IMG/VR virus record: IMGVR_UViG_3300023269_000003
Coordinates: 1 to 35,140 of that record
Length of the DNA stretch: 35,140 nucleotides
Strand: one strand, 5' to 3'
Origin: a virus
Taxonomy: Duplodnaviria > Caudoviricetes
Part shown: positions 1 through 32,342 of the stretch, piece by piece
How positions within the stretch are numbered: position 1 is the stretch's first letter
Layout: each line of letters begins with the position of its first letter
Translations under genes and position numbers: made by a program
Notes under the pieces: generated by a model
What the model was told of the DNA's origin: nothing
Database searches by the model: none
Seen by the model: only the letters and a program-made list of their open reading frames with translations

Positions 1-165
1 AAGATCCGAGGGGGTCAACCAGATCCTACCGGCAACACCTGGGCTGAGCTTGAGTTCAAGGGCTACAAGATGTCCTTCCGAGATGTCACTATCGATGAGA
101 TCAGTGCTCCAGAACAGGAGTGGGACGACGAACGAAGAGCACAGGAGGAATTGCAATGGGGCTGA
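1..165 (+). CDS. C-terminal end of probable DnaB-like helicase (partial, 5' end outside window)
   Basis: Frame 1 is open from base 1: KIRGGQPDPTGNTWAELEFKGYKMSFRD...*; resembles the K-x-RGG..DP.G C-terminus of L5-type DnaB-like helicases; lies upstream of Endo VII and primase. Confidence 0.6.
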   Translation, partial: KIRGGQPDPTGNTWAELEFKGYKMSFRDVTIDEISAPEQEWDDERRAQEELQWG

Positions 166-353
166 AGTTGAACGACCCCATCTGGATATTGGGTCAGATC
201 GAAGGCTACTTCGATCGATACATGGATGTCCGTGATCCATACGGGCGGGTCATGGTTGGGGTTCCCTCCCTTCGGGGAGGGGTTCCCGCAATCGTTCCAC
301 GTGAGTGGATCACCCCACGAGATGATTGGATGGCCAACCGTGGTAAGACGTGA
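156..353 (+). CDS. hypothetical protein (65 aa)
   Basis: GGAGGA RBS, ATG at 156, overlaps the helicase stop. Confidence 0.65.
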   Translation: MGLKLNDPIWILGQIEGYFDRYMDVRDPYGRVMVGVPSLRGGVPAIVPREWITPRDDWMANRGKT

Positions 354-525
354 GTATGTTGACGTCTGCCCTGCTTGCCACACTGTGTACCGAGGGTACA
401 AGGAGGCGGCCGTGCAGAACCAAGCAGAGAACTGCGCAACCCGTTGTTCTCCCAAGGATGAATCTGGTGCACCATCTCTGGATGAGGCGCTGAAGAAAGC
501 ACGAGAGGAATTGGGTGACTGGTAA
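340..525 (+). CDS. small CxxC protein (61 aa)
   Basis: GTG at 340; CPAC...CATRC; stop overlaps next ATG (TAATG). Confidence 0.55.
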   Translation: MVRREYVDVCPACHTVYRGYKEAAVQNQAENCATRCSPKDESGAPSLDEALKKAREELGDW

Positions 526-1043
526 TGGCCCGTGCAAGAAGGGCACGGAGCCCTGCGACGAAGAAACCCTCTGCGAAGACGCAGAACGACTCCTCAACTA
601 CGACTGGTCTATCGAGTTCTTCTACCAAGCCATGCAAAGGGTGTGGCTCTACGACCAGGAAGCTCACGGCACCAGGGCCACGATGCGCGACATGCCACAG
701 AGACCGCCGTACTACCGTCCAGTTGGCCCGTAGACTGGCGTACGTGGCTAAGCAGTATGGTCTGACCCCAGAGCAGTACCAAGCCCTCTGGGACGCACAG
801 GAGGGCAAGTGCTACATCTGTAAGAGGAACAAGGGCAACTGTGTAGACCACGATCACAAGTGCTGCCCCGGAAAGACCTCGTGCGGTAAGTGTGTTCGTG
901 GATTGCTCTGCAATCCGTGCAACAAGGGTGTCCTTGGGCACTTGCGTGACAATGTGCAATCACTGATCAGGGCAATCACGTACCTGATGTTTCCCCCAGC
1001 CCACAAGGTGTTCGAAAAACTGAAGGAGAGTAACGATGAGTGA
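525..1043 (+). CDS. Endonuclease VII-family protein
   Basis: YGLT..QY..L...QEGKCYIC...VDHDH...VRGLLC..CN..LG motif. Confidence 0.9.
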   Translation: MARARRARSPATKKPSAKTQNDSSTTTGLSSSSTKPCKGCGSTTRKLTAPGPRCATCHRDRRTTVQLARRLAYVAKQYGLTPEQYQALWDAQEGKCYICKRNKGNCVDHDHKCCPGKTSCGKCVRGLLCNPCNKGVLGHLRDNVQSLIRAITYLMFPPAHKVFEKLKESNDE

Positions 1044-1542
1044 CTACAAGCCGACCCAGCTCATGCTTGACTGGCACGCGGCCCTTCTGGAAGAGGGCCG
1101 CAAGCAGACGACCGGCACGTTGGGCAAGATGGAGAAGGATGGGACCGTGTCGAACTGTTGCCTCGGAGTTCTTTCCGAGGTTGCCGGGAACGTCGGCAAG
1201 CAGTGGTCCACGGGAGATCCTGACTTCCCGTTGTCTTCGACCCTGAAGTACGACGGGCCTAGCGCGAATGGTGATGTTTCCATGCCTTCGACGCACCTCA
1301 TTGCGGAGGTGCTGGGCCTGAACGACAGCTTCACCTTCCCTGGTGATGTACAGGTGGGTGTCGATGTCTACGGCACCAAGGTGAACGCGGCCGACCTGAA
1401 CGACGACTGGGGTTGGTCTTTCGAAGAGATCGCAGTCCAGTTGAAGACCGTGTACATCGATGGCACGGGTAACCCGATGGAATACACCATCGAAGAGTTG
1501 GACAGGAACGAGCGGTCGGACGATGACGACTGCGGATACTGA
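1036..1542 (+). CDS. hypothetical phage protein (CCLGV motif)
   Basis: AAGGAG RBS, 168 aa ORF coupled to Endo VII. Confidence 0.8.
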   Translation: MSDYKPTQLMLDWHAALLEEGRKQTTGTLGKMEKDGTVSNCCLGVLSEVAGNVGKQWSTGDPDFPLSSTLKYDGPSANGDVSMPSTHLIAEVLGLNDSFTFPGDVQVGVDVYGTKVNAADLNDDWGWSFEEIAVQLKTVYIDGTGNPMEYTIEELDRNERSDDDDCGY

Positions 1543-1551
1543 AAGGTAGAA

Positions 1552-1635
1552 ATGACGAAGCAGTGCATTTTCGGCGGTGAATGTATCGATGGGTGCGAGG
1601 TTGGCACCGAGGTACAGGAAAACGACGAAGACTAG
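1552..1635 (+). CDS. 27-aa Cys/acidic microprotein MTKQCIFGGECIDGCEVGTEVQENDED
   Basis: AAGGT RBS then ATG; fills the gap between CDS and ribozyme. Confidence 0.55.
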   Translation: MTKQCIFGGECIDGCEVGTEVQENDED

Positions 1636-1637
1636 CA

Positions 1638-1689
1638 GGGCGAAACGCCGGGAGGCGTCCACGGGTTGGTCCCGTGCCGATGAGCCCAA
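1638..1689 (+). ncRNA. type II hammerhead ribozyme (U4C core variant)
   Basis: gggc-GAAA-cgcc(ggga)ggcg-UC^cacggg(uuggu)cccgug-CCGAUGA-gccc; all three helices pair; GUC triplet at 1657-1659. Confidence 0.8.
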
Positions 1690-1700
1690 GGGAGGTGAGC

Positions 1701-1820
1701 ATGGATTGTCCCAAAGGCGGTGAGTGCCCCGATCCCGAGGCCTGTCTGCAAGGCGCACCGTGTGAAGTAGTTGTCTACTGGACCGACGTAATGAAGGAGC
1801 GGAAGAATGACGAACGCTGA
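1701..1820 (+). CDS. 39-aa Cys-rich microprotein MDCPKGGECPDPEACLQGAPC...
   Basis: GGAGGTGA RBS before ATG 1701; four Cys in C-x5 spacing. Confidence 0.7.
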   Translation: MDCPKGGECPDPEACLQGAPCEVVVYWTDVMKERKNDER

Positions 1821-2019
1821 AGGTACCGAGGCTCTGAACATCTTCTCCGCATGGTTCGAGGAAGACCACCCTGCGGGTTACTACACCCGTGGAGAGGGTT
1901 ATAACCACAACTGGAAGCTGACCGTGGAAGATGGGGTTGGCATTCTCAGGGTTGTCATGGAAGACATGCACACCCTGGACTCCGAGGAGTTCGAGTGGAC
2001 CCTGAACCTCCGATCGTAA
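1807..2019 (+). CDS. hypothetical protein (70 aa)
   Basis: AAGGAG RBS, acidic ORF overlapping its neighbours. Confidence 0.7.
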   Translation: MTNAEGTEALNIFSAWFEEDHPAGYYTRGEGYNHNWKLTVEDGVGILRVVMEDMHTLDSEEFEWTLNLRS

Positions 2020-2369
2020 CCCTACTGCGGAAGTGGTTCCCGGACTGGGAACCACCCCGTGGTAACCGAACGTGGGTCCCGTGTCTCTGTCCTTTCCACG
2101 CGGAGACACGGGCTTCTGCTTCCATATCTCTTGAACTCAATGCTTTCACCTGTCACGGATGTGGCATGAAGGGTGGGATTGTCAATCTGATCATGCGAAA
2201 GGAGGGCCTGAAGTTTGCAGAAGCCCAGCAGTACGCAGCTAGCTTTCTTGATGGAAGCTACGTCCCGATACCACCACAGCCTAAGCGGAAGCAGGGCCGA
2301 AGAGTATTTGGAAAGCCGAGGACTGAAGGGGGAAGACCTCAGAAAGTTCCGGCTTGGCGTAGTAGATGA
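1995..2369 (+). CDS. DNA primase zinc-binding (CHC2) subunit
   Basis: CPFH.E..ASAS......FTCHGCG.KG.I..LIM..EG..F.EA; GGAG RBS. Confidence 0.88.
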   Translation: MDPEPPIVTLLRKWFPDWEPPRGNRTWVPCLCPFHAETRASASISLELNAFTCHGCGMKGGIVNLIMRKEGLKFAEAQQYAASFLDGSYVPIPPQPKRKQGRRVFGKPRTEGGRPQKVPAWRSR

Positions 2370-2886
2370 CCCCATGCCTGGGCACGACATGTACAAGGGG
2401 TGGCTTGCCATTCCCTACATGAGGTGGAGTCCAGGACAGGGCTGGACCGTGATCACCATGCGCTTCAGGTGCTTGGAAGACCACGACCACGGACGTCATG
2501 GTAAGTACATGGCCCACCCCGGAAGTCAGATTCACATCTACAACACTCTGGCAGTGCTGGGAAGCAACGATGAGATTTGTATTTGTGAAGGGGAGATCGA
2601 TGCTATCACGGCGTCTATCCACGGCTTGCCGTCCGTAGGTATTCCAGGTCGCGAGAACTGGAAGTCTCACTTCTACCGCATGTTCGTAGGGTACGAGAAG
2701 ATTTACATCTTGGCCGATGGTGACCAAGCAGGTAAAGACTTTGCCTACGATGTAGTCAAGACCCTGCCCAAGGCACGGATCATCAATATGCCCGAAGGTG
2801 AAGACGTTAACTCAACGGCCAAGAAGTTTGGCGTGAACGCCATACTCAAGAGAATGGGGAAGCTGGATGCCGGAAGCGTCGCTTGA
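2215..2886 (+). CDS. DNA primase TOPRIM subunit
   Basis: YL..RG, ICEGEID.I, DGD.AG, EGEDVN motifs; true start uncertain. Confidence 0.9.
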   Translation: MQKPSSTQLAFLMEATSRYHHSLSGSRAEEYLESRGLKGEDLRKFRLGVVDDPMPGHDMYKGWLAIPYMRWSPGQGWTVITMRFRCLEDHDHGRHGKYMAHPGSQIHIYNTLAVLGSNDEICICEGEIDAITASIHGLPSVGIPGRENWKSHFYRMFVGYEKIYILADGDQAGKDFAYDVVKTLPKARIINMPEGEDVNSTAKKFGVNAILKRMGKLDAGSVA

Positions 2887-3067
2887 ATCTCGTGTGTCCA
2901 TCCAGTTTGACTGGGGCCAGGTGTTCCTGAGCGTTCCTGAGGCACGAGAGTTGCGAGAACAGTTGGACGATGTATTGCCACTCGAAGACGATGTGGTGCA
3001 CAACAAGAGTGGGCACTTTGGTTTCGGACCACTCGACGATTACGAAGAGGAGCACGACTGTGAGTGA
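2867..3067 (+). CDS. hypothetical protein
   Basis: Coupled ORF with LSVPEARELREQL helix. Confidence 0.65.
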   Translation: MPEASLESRVSIQFDWGQVFLSVPEARELREQLDDVLPLEDDVVHNKSGHFGFGPLDDYEEEHDCE

Positions 3068-3203
3068 CAACGAGGTTGCAGTTCGCAAGGCAGTAGAGAT
3101 CGACATCAACTACGACACCTATGTCTTGTCCAACGATGAGGCTATCGAACTCATGGAGAACCTGGCAAAGGTTCTCGGGTTCAAGATCGTGGGTAACGCG
3201 TGA
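3060..3203 (+). CDS. hypothetical protein (47 aa)
   Basis: GAGGAG RBS, GTG at 3060, GTGA overlap with the next gene. Confidence 0.65.
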   Translation: MSDNEVAVRKAVEIDINYDTYVLSNDEAIELMENLAKVLGFKIVGNA

Positions 3204-3940
3204 AGATCCTCACGGTAGATATCGAGACCGCCCCCAATGGTGGGTGGATCTGGGACCTGTGGAACCAGAACATTTCCCTTGCCCAACTCCGTGAGAACGT
3301 AAGGATTCTCTGCTTTGCTGCCAAGTGGTACGGAGAGGACAAGATCATGTTCTACTCCGAGTTCCACGACGGGGCAGACGCCATGATCAAGGCAGCATGG
3401 GACCTCCTGAACGAGGCTGATGCGGTTGTCACCTACAACGGTGACGCTTTCGACCTGAAGCACTTCAATCGAGAGTTCTTTGTGAGGGAGCTACCGCCTC
3501 CTGCCCCCTACGAGAGGATCGACCTCTACAAGGTCGTCAAGTCTCAGTTCAAGTTCGCTTCCAACAAGTTGGACCACGTGTCCGACCAGATCGAGATCGG
3601 CAACAAGGTCAAGCACGCGGGCTTTGGTCTCTGGATTCGTTGTATGAACAACGAGGCTTCCGCCTGGGAGGAGATGAAGACCTATAACGTAGGGGACGTG
3701 GACCTCACGGAGAAGCTGTACAAGCGGCTTGTTCCTTGGATCTCCAAGCATCCCAACATGGGTCTTTACGAAGACGACATCGAAGAGGACGTGTGCCCCA
3801 ACTGCTCAAGCGTGAATCTCCAGCGTCGTGGCTTCCGTAAGGTTGGGCTCTCTGAGTTCCAGCAGTACCAGTGCCAGGATTGCTACGCTTGGTCGCGGAG
3901 TGGCAAGGCCACGAACCGTGTCGATCTCCGTCCCGCATAG
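3200..3940 (+). CDS. DEDD/RNase H-like 3'-5' exonuclease with C-terminal Zn ribbon
   Basis: DIET, YNG..FD, YN..DV motifs; CPNC...CQDC. Confidence 0.88.
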   Translation: MKILTVDIETAPNGGWIWDLWNQNISLAQLRENVRILCFAAKWYGEDKIMFYSEFHDGADAMIKAAWDLLNEADAVVTYNGDAFDLKHFNREFFVRELPPPAPYERIDLYKVVKSQFKFASNKLDHVSDQIEIGNKVKHAGFGLWIRCMNNEASAWEEMKTYNVGDVDLTEKLYKRLVPWISKHPNMGLYEDDIEEDVCPNCSSVNLQRRGFRKVGLSEFQQYQCQDCYAWSRSGKATNRVDLRPA

Positions 3941-3953
3941 AAACGAGAACACA

Positions 3954-4553
3954 ATGAACTACGACGATATCCCGGAGGAATTCTACAGGGCCGTGGAACG
4001 AGCGGCCCGGAACACTGCGGAGAAGTGGCCCCTAGAAGAGTGGGAAGACCTAGGACAGGACGTATGGGTGCTTCTCTTGGAGAAGCCGAACACCTTGGAT
4101 AAGTGCCTTGAGGCTGATAACCCAGCTCCAATGCTGTCGCGGATTGCTGGACAGATTGCGGCTGAGAATCAGTTGAAGAGGAACTTGTTCCAGGGCAAGA
4201 ACCCCTACAACCCAACGCAAGTTCGTTCCATGCTTACGGCAGGGGTCCTGAAGGACTACAACGTGGTAACCGTAAGTGAGTCTCACGACCTATCCTATGG
4301 CATGATGGATCTGAAGAAAGCGAACGACGATTACTTCCGGATCGTTGTGGACAAATTCAAAAAGGATCAGGAGGTTGCCGACACGAAGAAGGTCACACGA
4401 GCTATCGACAAGCTCACGGATCTGATGAACATCACTGTTCTCAAGGCACCCAAGTACCACGATGGGCCTGGCGCTCGTAAGGCTATGTCTAACGAGAAAG
4501 CACAGTGGATCACACAGGTCCAGATGAATCATCTGGACGGTTGGAATGGCTGA
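3954..4553 (+). CDS. sigma-factor-like / DNA-binding protein
   Basis: EDL.QDVW..LLE region-2-like motif; synteny with L5-type phages. Confidence 0.6.
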   Translation: MNYDDIPEEFYRAVERAARNTAEKWPLEEWEDLGQDVWVLLLEKPNTLDKCLEADNPAPMLSRIAGQIAAENQLKRNLFQGKNPYNPTQVRSMLTAGVLKDYNVVTVSESHDLSYGMMDLKKANDDYFRIVVDKFKKDQEVADTKKVTRAIDKLTDLMNITVLKAPKYHDGPGARKAMSNEKAQWITQVQMNHLDGWNG

Positions 4554-4644
4554 TCCCAAAGAAGACGAAGAAGAGCAGGAAGAAGCTCAACCTGTGGTTG
4601 CGACACAGGCTGAGTTGAACGAAAAGTACGGCTGGAACCGCTGA
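4546..4644 (+). CDS. 32-aa acidic microprotein MADPKEDEEEQEE...
   Basis: ATG overlaps previous gene end; M-x-D-P start shared with the 12.2-13.1 kb peptides. Confidence 0.55.
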   Translation: MADPKEDEEEQEEAQPVVATQAELNEKYGWNR

Positions 4645-4670
4645 CACGTAACTAACAAAGGATGAAACAC

Positions 4671-5210
4671 ATGGCTAACGCCAAGAAGGACCCGTTCGAC
4701 ACCCCTCCTTTTGATGTTGAGCCTGACCAGGATTCTGTGCCTGGTGGGGATGAGGCTCAGACCGATGTGTGGGGTGCTGGTGACGGTGCCAAGAACACGA
4801 CCGTTGTTCTTCCTCCTCAGGAAGGCAAGGTAACGGTCACCCTCAAGGGTGGTATTGGGTACGGTGTTCCGTGGGTCGTGATCCACGCCAACGATGTGCC
4901 GGACGCGCTTGCGCAGATGTCCGACAAGGAGCTTCCTGCGCTGCTTGAGAAGGCTCAGAAGGCTACGGAGTTCTTCGCTAGCAAGGAAGTGAAGCCGACC
5001 CCTACGGAAACCCCTCAGGGGGGCTCTCAGACCCGATCTGGGCAGCCCGCTGCGTCGGGTGCCGGTCAGGGTGGTGCAACCCGGACGTGCAAGCACGGCC
5101 AGATGCTCCCTAAGTCTGGTGTGAGCCAGAAGACCGGTAAGGCCTGGAGCGGGTTCTTCTGCCCCACTCCTCGGGACGCCCCGGACCAGTGCAAGCCTCA
5201 GTTCGACTAA
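4671..5210 (+). CDS. conserved protein upstream of DNA polymerase, C-terminal Zn-finger (possible ssDNA-binding)
   Basis: CKHG.M..KSG...GK.WSGFFCP.....QC; AAGGA RBS; function inferred only. Confidence 0.7.
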   Translation: MANAKKDPFDTPPFDVEPDQDSVPGGDEAQTDVWGAGDGAKNTTVVLPPQEGKVTVTLKGGIGYGVPWVVIHANDVPDALAQMSDKELPALLEKAQKATEFFASKEVKPTPTETPQGGSQTRSGQPAASGAGQGGATRTCKHGQMLPKSGVSQKTGKAWSGFFCPTPRDAPDQCKPQFD

Positions 5211-7727: not shown

Positions 7728-8053
7728 TGGGACAGATCGAATACAGCACGAACAACTCGGGTGGGTCCTGGTGGCTCACGGACGAAGACTGGTACGCGCT
7801 GGAAGAGGCGGGCTGGACTGTCCAGTGGGAGAAGGACATCAAGGACAAGCTGTTCAAGGACAGCAATAGCCCAGACCGTTGGTTGGGTGCTCTTGCCACC
7901 AAGGCGACCTTCCCTGGTGATGACTTCGAAGAGGCTGTGCGTTCCTTCGAGAACGCTACGGACCAGCACGCAAACGACCAAGGCTGTGACTGCTGTGGAC
8001 AACCCCACAGCTTCACCCGCATTGACGACAATGGGAACTGGAGCTGGTACTAG
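7727..8053 (+). CDS. hypothetical protein (YSTNNSGGSWWL...GCDCCGQPHSF)
   Basis: TAATG coupling. Confidence 0.8.
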   Translation: MGQIEYSTNNSGGSWWLTDEDWYALEEAGWTVQWEKDIKDKLFKDSNSPDRWLGALATKATFPGDDFEEAVRSFENATDQHANDQGCDCCGQPHSFTRIDDNGNWSWY

Positions 8054-8841
8054 TGCCAAACGCACTTCATGAGGCCTGGGAACTCCTGGCAAACGTCTCC
8101 GAGGGGGACTGGTCTCTCCAGTCCCCCTCTTGGCAGGCGGATACCGAAGACTGGAGGAACCGCTACATGGGTTCCGAGAAGCACTCAGGAGAGGTTGGTT
8201 TCATCAAGTGGCCTTCTACTCCGCGCTGGCACAAGGGTCTGACCATCACGGAGAAGATCGATGGGACCAACGCGTGCATCCGAATCCTTGACGGGAAGGT
8301 CACGGCACAGTCTCGCAAGCGATTGATTCGTGTGGGCGACGACAACTTCGGTTTCGCTGCCTGGGTTGAGGAGAACAAGGATGAGCTGACCAAGCTGCTT
8401 GGTTATGGTGTTCACTTCGGTGAGTGGTTCGGTGAGGGAATCCAGAAGAACCCTCTGGGTATCGAAGGGAAGCGCTTCGCGCTGTTCTCTCCGTGGAAGT
8501 TCCAGGGCACCCAGAAGCTTGACATCGAAGAATCCGATCTTGTGGAGTTCGTTCCGGTCCTCTTCGAGGGTCAGGCCGACTTCATGACTATTCCCACTGT
8601 GCTCACGAACCTGGGACACTTTGGTAGTCGGGTTGCGGGAGCAGCACGGTATGTCCCTGAATCGTTTGATGGTCCGGTTGGCGACTTCACTGTTGCCAAC
8701 AAGGCTGAGGGCATCATCGTGTGGCACCGTGAGACCCAGCAGAAGTACAAGATCCTGCTGGAGAATGACGCTATCCACAAGGGGCAGGTACCTCAGATTG
8801 ACTTCGAGGGGTTGTCCAAGGAGCCCAGGGGATTCGCGTGA
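8053..8841 (+). CDS. RNA ligase (Rnl2-like nucleotidyltransferase)
   Basis: motif I EKIDGTN, QSR, FGEW.G.GIQ, F.LF, EGII, K.L; alternative start ATG 8167. Confidence 0.85.
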   Translation: MPNALHEAWELLANVSEGDWSLQSPSWQADTEDWRNRYMGSEKHSGEVGFIKWPSTPRWHKGLTITEKIDGTNACIRILDGKVTAQSRKRLIRVGDDNFGFAAWVEENKDELTKLLGYGVHFGEWFGEGIQKNPLGIEGKRFALFSPWKFQGTQKLDIEESDLVEFVPVLFEGQADFMTIPTVLTNLGHFGSRVAGAARYVPESFDGPVGDFTVANKAEGIIVWHRETQQKYKILLENDAIHKGQVPQIDFEGLSKEPRGFA

Positions 8842-10905: not shown

Positions 10906-11403
10906 ATGCGATACTGGTATGACACCGAGTTCTACGAGGATGGCGAGAAGATCAACCTGATCTCCTTCGGTATCGTGGCCGAAGATGGTCGCGAACTATA
11001 CTTGGAGAACGCCAACTTTAATTGGGGCATCGTCCCAGACGACCATTGGATCTGGGAGAACGTGTACCCGCACCTCACCCATCAGCGCACCCTGAAGAAC
11101 CAGATGGCCAACAAGATTCGCAAGTTCATCACGATGGACGGTACGGAGTTCGACAATCAGCTCTGGGGCTACTACAGCTCGTACGATCATGTCGTTCTGG
11201 CCCAGCTCTTCGGGCGAATGGTTGACATGCCGGTCGGAGTTCCGTGGTACACCAACGATGTCAAGCAACTCATGGTGTCGATGGGTGTCAAGGAGCTACC
11301 ACTTCAGGATGAGGTACACCACCACGCCTTGTCTGACGCGAGGTGGACCCGTAAGGCCTACATGTACTTGGCTGACATGTGGGCAAGCGAAAACGACTTC
11401 TAG
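10906..11403 (+). CDS. DEDDh 3'-5' exoribonuclease (Rv2179c/RNase AS-like)
   Basis: YDTEF.EDG..I.LISFGIVAEDGRE.Y, W.YY..YDHV, HHAL.DARW. Confidence 0.88.
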   Translation: MRYWYDTEFYEDGEKINLISFGIVAEDGRELYLENANFNWGIVPDDHWIWENVYPHLTHQRTLKNQMANKIRKFITMDGTEFDNQLWGYYSSYDHVVLAQLFGRMVDMPVGVPWYTNDVKQLMVSMGVKELPLQDEVHHHALSDARWTRKAYMYLADMWASENDF

Positions 11404-30784: not shown

Positions 30785-30856
30785 TCAGGATGGGTGGGAT
30801 CGAACCACCGGCCCCGCGCTTCCAAAGCGCTCACTCTACCTCTGAGCTACACCCTG
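30785..30856 (-). tRNA. tRNA-Pro(UGG)
   Basis: Cloverleaf; loop UU-UGG-AA; T-loop UUCGAUC. Confidence 0.9.
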
Positions 30857-30892
30857 ATGATGGTTGTTTAAGGGACAACCCACAAACCCTTG

Positions 30893-30965
30893 AGCCGCTA
30901 CTAGGACTTGAACCCAGAACCACCCGCTTACGAGGCGGGTGCTCTTCCATTTGAGCTACAACGGC
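30893..30965 (-). tRNA. tRNA-Thr(CGU)
   Basis: Cloverleaf; loop CU-CGU-AA. Confidence 0.92.
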
Positions 30966-30969
30966 AAAG

Positions 30970-31042
30970 CGGGGCCACGAGGGCTTGCACCTCGCACTGC
31001 GGTTTTGGAGACCGCTGTTTTGCTCACCTAAACTATGTCCCC
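30970..31042 (-). tRNA. tRNA-Trp(CCA)
   Basis: Loop CU-CCA-AA; atypical T-loop UGCAAGC; one acceptor mismatch. Confidence 0.8.
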
Positions 31043-31095
31043 TTGACTAGCACACGCAAAAGAACCGTCCGCAGTCTTTACACAAAAACACCATG

Positions 31096-31166
31096 CTGGT
31101 CGCCCTGGATTCGAACCAGGAACGCTGGGTTCAGAGCCCAGTGTGTTGCCGTTACACCAACAACCA
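31096..31166 (-). tRNA. tRNA-Gln(CUG)
   Basis: Cloverleaf; U1:A72; loop CU-CUG-AA. Confidence 0.92.
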
Positions 31167-31219
31167 TTGGTCCGTGCACACTCTTACGCAGGCGTCCCCA
31201 CTCGCGAATACACGGATTG

Positions 31220-31291
31220 TCATCCATCCAGGATTTGAACCTGGAACCTAGAGCTTAAGAGGCCCTTGCTCTACCCTTGAGCTAATGGACG
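31220..31291 (-). tRNA. tRNA-Lys(CUU)
   Basis: Cloverleaf; loop CU-CUU-AA. Confidence 0.92.
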
Positions 31292-31292
31292 G

Positions 31293-31366
31293 TCGCTCAC
31301 CCAGGTTTCGAACCTGGTACTTCCTACTCATCAGGTAGGCACTCTGACCAATTGAGTTAGCGAGCG
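31293..31366 (-). tRNA. tRNA-Ile(GAU)
   Basis: Cloverleaf; loop CU-GAU-GA (G37). Confidence 0.85.
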
Positions 31367-31375
31367 ATAAAACTA

Positions 31376-31501
31376 TCAACCATCGATCTGGCCATTGCCA
31401 TGACAGGTCGGACATACGATCTCCGTCTGACTACCGTCTGACTCACGCTGGTACACCGTACTCGATCCACCCTTGCAGGTGTAGCAATCTATCTTAGCCA
31501 C
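31376..31501 (-). CDS. 41-aa CxxC...CxxCxGxG zinc-binding microprotein inside the tRNA cluster
   Basis: AAGGAG RBS, GTG 31501: MAKIDCYTCKGG...CPTCHGNGQIDG. Confidence 0.7.
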   Translation of the reverse strand: MAKIDCYTCKGGSSTVYQRESDGSQTEIVCPTCHGNGQIDG

Positions 31502-31516
31502 TTCACTCCTTGTACG

Positions 31517-31594
31517 TGGTCGGTAAGGACGGGACTCGAACCCGCTAAGACCGGCTTCACAAACCGGTGCCTCGGCCACTTCGGCATCCTTCCT
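31517..31594 (-). tRNA. tRNA-His(GUG), imperfect acceptor stem
   Basis: Loop UU-GUG-AA; good D and T arms; CCA nearby; acceptor pairing poor. Confidence 0.7.
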
Positions 31595-31595
31595 G

Positions 31596-31667
31596 CTCCC
31601 ACAACTGGACTCGAACCAGTAACCCGCGCCTTAACAGGACGCTGCTCTGCCATTGAGCTATACGGGA
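31596..31667 (-). tRNA. tRNA-Asn(GUU)
   Basis: Cloverleaf; loop CU-GUU-AA; G73. Confidence 0.93.
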
Positions 31668-31672
31668 TTAAC

Positions 31673-31771
31673 GTGGCCGCTCGATACACCAAGTCACCGA
31701 TGGTTGTCGGGTCATTAGCATCGCTGGACCAACGGGTAGTTCCTGCCACTTCGAGTTTACTACCAACTTAG
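31673..31771 (-). ncRNA. candidate structured RNA between tRNA-Arg and tRNA-Asn
   Basis: Five complementary 5-7 bp segment pairs in about 100 nt; no family recognised. Confidence 0.4.
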
Positions 31772-31774
31772 ACG

Positions 31775-31850
31775 TCGCTCCTGAGGGATTCGAACCCCCG
31801 CAAACCCAGGTTCGTAGCCTGGTGCTCTGTCCGGACTGAGCTAAGAAGCG
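31775..31850 (-). tRNA. tRNA-Arg(ACG)
   Basis: Cloverleaf; loop CU-ACG-AA. Confidence 0.9.
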
Positions 31851-32020
31851 ATTTCTACACGGATACGATCGGCAATCCCGGACTTGAACTCTTCTACGTA
31901 GTCCATCCACTCTTGTGGCATGTTCTGCTGCCACATACCACGACTGGCTTCGATGAACCCCATATACAGGTCTTGGTACATCTTGGGCCATTCGTTGAAC
32001 TCTTCCTTGCTTGCGATCAT
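31841..32020 (-). CDS. 59-aa hypothetical protein ending inside tRNA-Arg
   Basis: GGAGG RBS, ATG 32020: MIASKEEFNEWPKMYQDLY...RVEIAS*. Confidence 0.7.
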   Translation of the reverse strand: MIASKEEFNEWPKMYQDLYMGFIEASRGMWQQNMPQEWMDYVEEFKSGIADRIRVEIAS

Positions 32021-32034
32021 CGATCCTCCGTAAG

Positions 32035-32108
32035 TGGTTACCCGCCAGGGAATCGAACCCTGATCTCCTGGGTGTAGGCCAGGAACTCTTCCTTTGAGCT
32101 AGCAGGCA
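32035..32108 (-). tRNA. tRNA-Val(UAC)
   Basis: Cloverleaf with encoded CCA; loop CC-UAC-AC (C33). Confidence 0.82.
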
Positions 32109-32111
32109 AAG

Positions 32112-32185
32112 CCGAAACGCTTGGATTTGAACCAAGAACCCGTGGCTTTTCACGCCACTGCTCTTCCAAGTTGAGCTACGTCCCG
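32112..32185 (-). tRNA. tRNA-Phe(GAA)
   Basis: Cloverleaf; loop GU-GAA-AA (G32). Confidence 0.85.
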
Positions 32186-32189
32186 TTGA

Positions 32190-32263
32190 TCCCAGTTCAA
32201 GGACTCGAACCTCGAACTCCCGAGTTACAGTCAGGCCGGTTGCCAATTACCATACAAACTGGG
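32190..32263 (-). tRNA. tRNA-Tyr(GUA), short variable loop
   Basis: Loop CU-GUA-AC; C1:G72; 4-nt variable region; irregular D arm. Confidence 0.75.
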
Positions 32264-32267
32264 ATAG

Positions 32268-32342
32268 TACCCCTCCCCAGATTCGAACTGGGAACCTTCC
32301 GGGTCTGAGCCGGACGCCTCTGCCAGGTTGGGCTAGAAGGGC
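32268..32342 (-). tRNA. tRNA-Leu(CAG), short variable loop
   Basis: Cloverleaf; loop CU-CAG-AC; 5-nt variable region. Confidence 0.82.

Follow-up and report, generated by a model that had tools for sequence, protein, structure and literature searches.

The locus at positions 1638 to 1689 raises the question of whether a short intergenic segment with the three helices of a type II hammerhead ribozyme, but with the core CCGAUGA in place of the consensus CUGAUGA, is a working self-cleaving RNA, how its helices are held together and what it could do for the phage that carries it. The window, by which we mean the whole stretch of 35,140 nucleotides that was analysed, is a piece of a tailed-phage genome and its left part is a plus-strand replication block, in which endonuclease VII and primase genes are accompanied by genes for an exonuclease, a sigma-K-like protein and a DNA polymerase. 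The DNA of the primase is nearest to that of Mycobacterium and Rhodococcus phages (about 63-67% identity), and an actinobacterial host is therefore likely. This primase is encoded by two overlapping ORFs in different frames, an arrangement annotated in the same way in phages Eaglepride and RER2. The hammerhead fills the gap between the stop codon of one Cys-rich micro-ORF and the Shine-Dalgarno-like run and start codon of another, and both ORFs and the run are present where the preliminary description had placed them. The surrounding features are as follows.

525-1043, plus strand: endonuclease VII, in the replication block
1552-1635, plus strand: upstream micro-ORF, 27 amino acids with 3 Cys; its stop codon at 1633-1635 ends 2 bases before helix II
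1688-1698, plus strand: Shine-Dalgarno-like run upstream of ATG 1701, read from the sequence
1701-1820, plus strand: downstream micro-ORF, 39 amino acids with 4 Cys, start codon ATG at 1701
1995-2886, plus strand: split DNA primase, with a zinc-binding ORF at 1995-2369 and a catalytic ORF extending to 2886 (PHROG 360 and 849)

Neither micro-ORF matches PHROG or Pfam. Both contain the motif C-x-x-GGEC-x-D, and they are 78% (1552-1635) and 85% (1701-1820) identical to their counterparts in a related phage, L001, in which a third Cys-rich micro-ORF (L001:2590-2691) lies between the two; together these could possibly be a small family of metal-binding peptides. A scan of positions 1-4700 with a sigma-70-like consensus, the scope of which does not extend to actinophage promoters, found no promoter. 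Elsewhere in the window, 13 tRNA genes are clustered on the minus strand at 30785-32342, between the endolysin and terminase regions, and an RNA ligase (PF09414) and a protein with an Rv2179c-like 3'-5' exoribonuclease domain are encoded at 8053-8841 and 10906-11403. We take the PF09414 ligase to be of the ATP-dependent type and not RtcB, and it therefore has no direct tie to hammerhead ends.

A complete type II hammerhead fold was found in one copy at 1638-1687. The helices, the GAAA, the GUC triplet, the CCGAUGA core and a CCAA at 1686-1689 are all located where they had been reported; loop I, given earlier as the four bases UUGG, has these letters but is five bases long (UUGGU). The parts of the ribozyme are listed here.

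1637, plus strand: A directly 5' of helix II, equivalent to the loop-II A L2.4 and the predicted partner of U1666
1638-1641, plus strand: 5' strand of helix II (11.4-11.1), from the sequence and from covariation in a 110-sequence alignment
1642-1645, plus strand: GAAA, corresponding to G12-A13-A14-A15.1, from the sequence and the Rfam alignment
1646-1658, plus strand: helix III hairpin of 4 bp (1646-1649/1654-1657) with a GGGA loop, closed by the A15.1-U16.1 pair (A1645-U1658), from folds and covariation
1657-1660, plus strand: GUC triplet (1657-1659) and predicted scissile bond C1659/C1660, by hammerhead numbering applied to the sequence
1660-1676, plus strand: helix I hairpin of 6 bp (1660-1665/1671-1676), from the sequence, folds and the family alignment
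1666-1670, plus strand: loop I, five bases UUGGU, the first of which, U1666, is U1.7, from the sequence
1677-1683, plus strand: core CCGAUGA (C3, C4, G5, A6, U7, G8, A9) with the U4C change at 1678, from the sequence; the change recurs in folding relatives
1684-1687, plus strand: 3' strand of helix II (10.1-10.4), from the sequence and covariation

The minimum free energy and centroid folds of 1638-1689 are both exactly this three-way junction, at -24.6 kcal/mol. The energy by itself is unremarkable (z = -1.22), and the significance of the site comes from the core and geometry, which exceed what is obtained from shuffled sequence. A type II descriptor run over the 35-kb window returned this one site and no second type II hammerhead, while in dinucleotide shuffles of the window a loose descriptor match occurred in 4 of 300 and a match with helices of at least 4, 4 and 6 bp in 0 of 300. 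A type I/III-like core at 23175-23133 on the minus strand lacks the G10.1-C11.1 pair, lies inside ORFs and was taken as a chance match. The fold, the descriptor and the shuffles agree with the initial identification of a type II hammerhead carrying U4C. Among the positions that define the class, C3, G5, A6, G8, A9, G12, A13, A14, A15.1-U16.1, H17 and G10.1-C11.1 all have the expected bases, loops close helices I and III, and helix II is open as in type II; the exception is U4 of the strict consensus CUGANGA, where C1678 is found. Given that C4 is a published active natural variant and is allowed by CYGANGA descriptors, the element was classified as a core variant and not as a canonical member. 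Cleavage after 1659, as first proposed, fits the hammerhead numbering with GUC at 1657-1659 and remains the predicted site. Comparison with the Rfam models, which had been suggested as a check, was favourable in one respect and not in another: Hammerhead_II (RF02276) aligns to 1638-1691 with 28.1 bits (E = 0.00085 in a 351-nt search), which is below the gathering threshold of 37. Whole-window Rfam scans at gathering level and at E<=1 reported no ribozyme, and the RF02276 match appears only in the 351-nt search. From these observations the segment 1638-1687 almost certainly descends from a type II hammerhead and keeps its fold, and it probably also cleaves.

A search with the primase for close relatives gave a single close relative phage among 12 candidates, L001, with 77% primase identity. 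The 58 bases at 1634-1691 are unchanged between the two phages, compared with a mean column identity of 81% for the region. Directly after the hammerhead L001 carries, between two SD-like runs, 96 additional bases with an ORF of 33 codons, and therefore the gene 3' of the ribozyme differs between the two phages.

To describe the wider family, viral contigs were searched with a pattern made of core letters and spacings only, with C or U allowed at position 4 and with no constraint on loop I, on the base preceding helix II or on any helix II pair after the first. At least 121 stretches matched, and about 520 viral stretches in all are estimated to hold the spacing-only pattern. Among the matches listed there were 124, of which 111 were distinct; 109 of these pair fully in helices I and III and 2 were dropped. 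The lengths of helices I and III were set by the pattern and their pairing served as a selection filter, whereas helix II and the two bases discussed below were not filtered. Helix II was 4 bp long in 103 of the 109 listed relatives and 5 bp in 2. When these 109 sequences and the window were aligned (110 sequences), 99.7% of cells paired and 13 of 16 pairs had changed on both sides, far more than in shuffles and slid controls; for helix II, 99.1% of cells paired and pairs 2, 3 and 4 showed both-side changes in 55, 54 and 18 sequences. Covariation in homologous loci, the absence of which had been named as a ground for refutation, was present for the 4-bp helix II. The compact form was also found in contigs of bacterial genomes (13 folding among 37 distinct matches). 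None of 14 family loci reached the Rfam cut-off of 37, and six were reported at all, with 22.5-31.3 bits. An SD sequence and start codon followed by at least 25 codons was present within 50 bases downstream in 78 of 107 listed relatives, compared with 5 of 107 on the opposite strand.

The alignment also bears on how helices I and II are brought together. The pattern imposed neither the base immediately before helix II nor any base of loop I, yet 105 of the 109 listed relatives share an A at the former position and a U at the start of loop I, and U1.7 is present in all 105 listed relatives that have the A. A complete viral scan for members lacking the A gave 19 distinct matches, of which 13 fold, and 10 of these 13 lack the U as well; their position 1.7 is A in 9, U in 3 and C in 1, and six represent a clean U/A swap. 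The nominal Fisher p for the joint change is 3e-12, a value that overstates independence. The six swap members have helix II, the loop ends and a 3' U in common, this U being a possible alternative partner, and so may be one lineage and may use a different contact. In the window the U at 1.7 (U1666) and the A 5' of 11.4 (A1637) flank a 4-bp helix II, and we predict from this conservation that helices I and II dock by the single A1637-U1666 contact and not by a pseudoknot. The positions of the conserved A and U match those of the A(L4)-U1.7 Hoogsteen contact in the sTRSV and S. mansoni crystal structures, a contact that according to PMC11875169 was also used in the engineered fast minimal hammerhead of O'Rourke. 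PMC6155905 likewise notes that a reverse Hoogsteen pair is conserved in hammerheads. The U7 residue was reported as not essential in the trans construct of PMC11875169. U1.7 could also pair with the last loop base, which is a G, giving a wobble, in 73 of 105 listed relatives (about 70%). An A-U contact in type II is not unanticipated, since Figure S5 of PMC3088659 tallies a similar U...A motif for all three hammerhead types. Of the viroid-type loop-loop motif U-Nm-Y-N / R-Nn-A, three of four positions are present in the window (U1666, A1688 and A1637) while G1669 is not Y, which makes the motif "imperfect" in the terms of that figure.

The preliminary description had instead proposed that helix II shortens to 2 bp and lets UUGG of loop I pair with CCAA at 1686-1689, in the pseudoknot geometry of Rfam Hammerhead_II. 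All four pairs can be formed by the letters of the window copy, Rfam aligns CCAA with its pseudoknot strand, the four pairs are kept in L001, and three of them are retained in L252, the closest canonical-core relative among the matches listed, whose loop is the same. The family argues against this model, because the helix II pairs 3 and 4 that would be sacrificed covary (in 54 and 18 of the 110 sequences) while pairs in the pseudoknot register occur in 38.4% of cells. Four pairs were seen in 1 of 109 listed relatives, and the mean of 1.51 pairs was not in excess over the 1.54 in shuffled tails; among 32 U4C members four pairs were present only in the 51-mer of the window. Moreover, 2 linker bases separate helix II from the pseudoknot strand in the Rfam consensus and none do so here, and opening two helix II pairs would cost about 7 kcal/mol against -1.8 for the 4-bp duplex. 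That such a pseudoknot is at work in this copy is accordingly very unlikely. Two further pairings were considered and rejected. Pairing in any register with the tail overlapping helix II gave 18 against 12.7 (reached in 4.7% of shuffles), an excess that disappeared when the helix II bases were left out (18 against 16.8), and a 5'-flank pseudoknot (1631-1635 with loop I) is broken in L001 and shows no excess in the family.

The U4C change is rare, being found in 2 of the 109 listed relatives, the unbiased sample. In complete viral scans, 8 of 12 distinct U4C matches folded; among 10 matches with U4A/G none did, and among 10 with a change at G5 one did. A metagenome scan, in which the A and the U were imposed, gave 51 distinct matches. 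U4C is present in 28 that fold (the 51-mer of the window among them), in 2 others with a single mismatch and in 3 that do not fold; the remaining 18 carry U4A/G, and none of them folds. A loose scan for CCGAUGA gave at least 119 loci, most of those listed not folding. When pooled, the 32 distinct U4C sequences formed 24, 18 or 11 clusters at 4, 6 or 8 differences; for 9 of them the nearest neighbour is a U4 sequence, and helix II is complete in 30. Given the many clusters and the U4 nearest neighbours, and given that the other changes tested are not kept, the comparison indicates that U4C arose more than once and is retained, which is not the pattern of decay. The change itself is not new. It is the viroid variant of Ambros and Flores 1998, cited in PMC3088659 as having considerably lower activity in vitro while still supporting infection, and a 2026 survey (PMC13481778) used CYGANGA descriptors in which C or T at position 4 was allowed and observed. 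A literature search for U4C or CCGAUGA by title or start of abstract returned no paper on phage copies. The earlier suggestion that U4C tunes the cleavage rate is plausible.

Lower activity in vitro (PMC3088659) would also fit a weakened or dead ribozyme that is kept for its hairpins, as an RNA stabiliser or a spacer before the RBS, with U4C as a GC-biased and nearly neutral change. The flanks of U4C copies are indeed richer in GC (median 0.573 vs 0.497), so mutation bias may contribute, and competing folds are predicted in longer sequence context. This explanation is unlikely, however, given that the rest of the core is intact, that among folding copies U4A/G is absent and G5 changes are nearly absent, and that U4C is spread over 11-24 sequence clusters, with three copies on one contig. 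In addition, position 7 is a U in 28 of 32 U4C copies compared with 62 of 107 (p = 0.003, with no correction for relatedness or for the number of columns), a preference opposite to a drift towards GC.

The initial proposal had the primase-side transcript gain a 5'-OH end from cleavage. Primase genes do lie 335 bases downstream of the hammerhead in the window and this arrangement is kept in L001, but two small ORFs intervene between the cut site and the primase start in the window, and in L001 the 33-codon ORF is inserted straight after the ribozyme. The neighbours of other U4C loci are unrelated, with no tblastn match to the window primase proteins at the other viral U4C loci, and the descriptor detects no type II hammerhead in Rhodococcus phage RER2 and Mycobacterium phage Eaglepride, two cultured phages that carry the endonuclease VII-primase block. 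Among the loci compared, only the L001 contig matched the block of the window, with one weak primase-domain match in L069. The association with the primase is incidental, a matter of context and not of a conserved partner, and it is most improbable that cleavage specifically controls primase expression.

A role in mRNA processing, which was also part of the original proposal, remains likely from the stop-ribozyme-RBS position and from the precedent of intergenic prophage hammerheads, for which cleavage of polycistronic RNA was shown both in vitro and in E. coli (PMC3088659); the purpose of intergenic self-cleaving ribozymes in phages is still described as open (PMC6765202). We regard it as fairly probable that the locus holds a type II hammerhead of the compact form, having C4 and a helix II of 4 bp, which likely cuts polycistronic phage mRNA after C1659, probably more slowly than the canonical core, and for which an A1637-U1666 docking and no pseudoknot is predicted. 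The RNA would fold once base 1687 had been transcribed and would then cut after C1659. The 5'-OH of the downstream RNA, with the helix I hairpin directly at that end, would lie 41 bases ahead of the ATG; the upstream product would end in the helix III hairpin and a cyclic phosphate. Both 5'-OH/hairpin and hairpin/cyclic-phosphate ends resist RNase E and J. The two new ends would thus be expected to resist host nucleases, and the downstream genes would become a separately stabilised and separately initiated message, similar to the situation with RiboJ; 5' hairpins are known to increase mRNA half-life (PMC6993053). Predicted pairing probabilities of the three helices are 0.77-0.99 in an RNA ending at 1689, and with downstream sequence to 1720-1760 the predicted pairing of helix II drops to 0.05-0.34. 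Because helix II is predicted to be lost once this sequence is present, a slower C4 core together with the competing folds would cut only part of the transcripts. In the 3' cleavage product the RBS is predicted to be 32% unpaired.

The closeness of the upstream stop, which ends 2 bases short of helix II, could also mean that cutting is regulated, i.e. that ribosomes terminating at 1633-1635, or an alternative helix (1630-1636/1665-1671), gate folding and couple cleavage to translation. A stop triplet is present at most 9 bases upstream in 71 of the 109 listed relatives, compared with 50 in shuffles, and the alternative helix is part of the minimum free energy fold of 1610-1720. However, L001 breaks this helix, pairing of loop I with the 5' flank is not in excess in the family (17 vs 18.8 shuffled), and packing tight against a stop is expected for any phage intergenic element. 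We therefore consider regulated cutting distinctly unlikely, the favoured reading being the partial cutting of a long phage mRNA just ahead of the RBS, as described above.

A broader reading of the family is that a type II subclass of about 51 nt, missed by Rfam, is widespread in phages and is the natural counterpart of the engineered minimal hammerhead. Instead of docking by loop-loop interaction or by a pseudoknot, its members would join the 5' flank to loop I by a single A-U contact that can be swapped; the whole would serve as a stop-ribozyme-RBS cassette that is portable, and U4C (together with U7) would have been selected as a slow setting that determines the cut fraction of the operon message. 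As a whole we put this forward tentatively, as something that could be true but is less probable than its negation. A literature search found no paper describing the compact subclass; the type II listing in Dataset S1 of PMC3088659, which lies outside the scope of that search, may already include the subclass or U4C phage copies. The compact A-U-docked subclass may be the part that is new. A single copy adds little, as type II phage hammerheads and U4C have both been published, and the useful part is the family view, which supplies more than 100 natural sequences of fixed geometry below the Rfam cut-off and a specific A-U docking contact with natural swaps. It also supplies natural pairs that are nearly matched except at position 4, for example the window and L252, which have three other differences.

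Several other hammerheads were met among the loci searched. At L014:334-2874 (minus strand) about 2.5 kb contain nine type II hammerheads of the pseudoknot type, every one of them with an SD sequence and a start codon after it. L143:396-4596 holds an array of eight type II hammerheads whose loop I/tail pseudoknots covary, and CCGAUGA is the core in one of these. Hammerhead-like folds with the core CUGA-N-GA-U/C-G, in which helix II is preceded by an additional base or the core is shifted, were missed by the descriptor and are present in at least seven contigs (L126, L130, L132, L137, L149, L153 and L155); they may be a further recurrent core variant. In L133, L140 and L145 only the GAAA-helix III-GUC half is present, without helix I or the core and soon followed by an SD sequence and a start codon, and these could possibly be remnants of ribozymes of which deletion has spared a hairpin. 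Streptomyces phage Yara (L456:1502-1552 and 2977-3029) and phage R4 (L457:2005-2056 and 2688-2739) each carry two type II hammerheads that the records do not annotate as such; one of those in Yara has G at position 7 and a 6-base loop I. As Yara and R4 are cultured Streptomyces phages with intergenic type II hammerheads, they make the processing role accessible to study during an actual infection.

Among known systems, the closest are the type II hammerheads of bacteria and (pro)phages (RF02276; Perreault et al. 2011, PMC3088659), which are alike in the open helix II, the core and the NUH site, and also in the intergenic position between small phage genes and the mRNA processing proposed there. 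The family of the window differs in its 4-bp covarying helix II and in having no conserved pseudoknot between loop I and the 3' tail, and the window differs in C4; with 28.1 bits for the window and 31.3 for the best of the 14 family loci, all score below the RF02276 threshold of 37. HHmin-AL4:U1.7 (O'Rourke et al. 2015, as presented in PMC11875169) is alike in its 4-bp helix II, its unpaired U seven bases past the cut and its A just before 11.4. In HHmin, sTRSV and S. mansoni, however, a tetraloop closes stem II and the A is the final base of this loop, whereas stem II of the window is open and the A belongs to the 5' flank; the window copy is also natural, cis-acting and phage-borne, and its contact is read from conservation only. 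The U4C viroid hammerhead (Ambros and Flores 1998, as cited in PMC3088659) has the same core change, which here is fixed in DNA phages, in many sequence clusters and in a type II frame. The RiboJ insulator (PMC6993053, PMC8942793), which has been used in an actinobacterium, Corynebacterium (PMC8942793), offers a comparison of how the element may work only: after cutting by a hammerhead the RNA begins at a uniform 5' end, and a hairpin stands shortly before the RBS. RiboJ is engineered and placed after a promoter, whereas the hammerhead of the window is natural and lies inside an operon.
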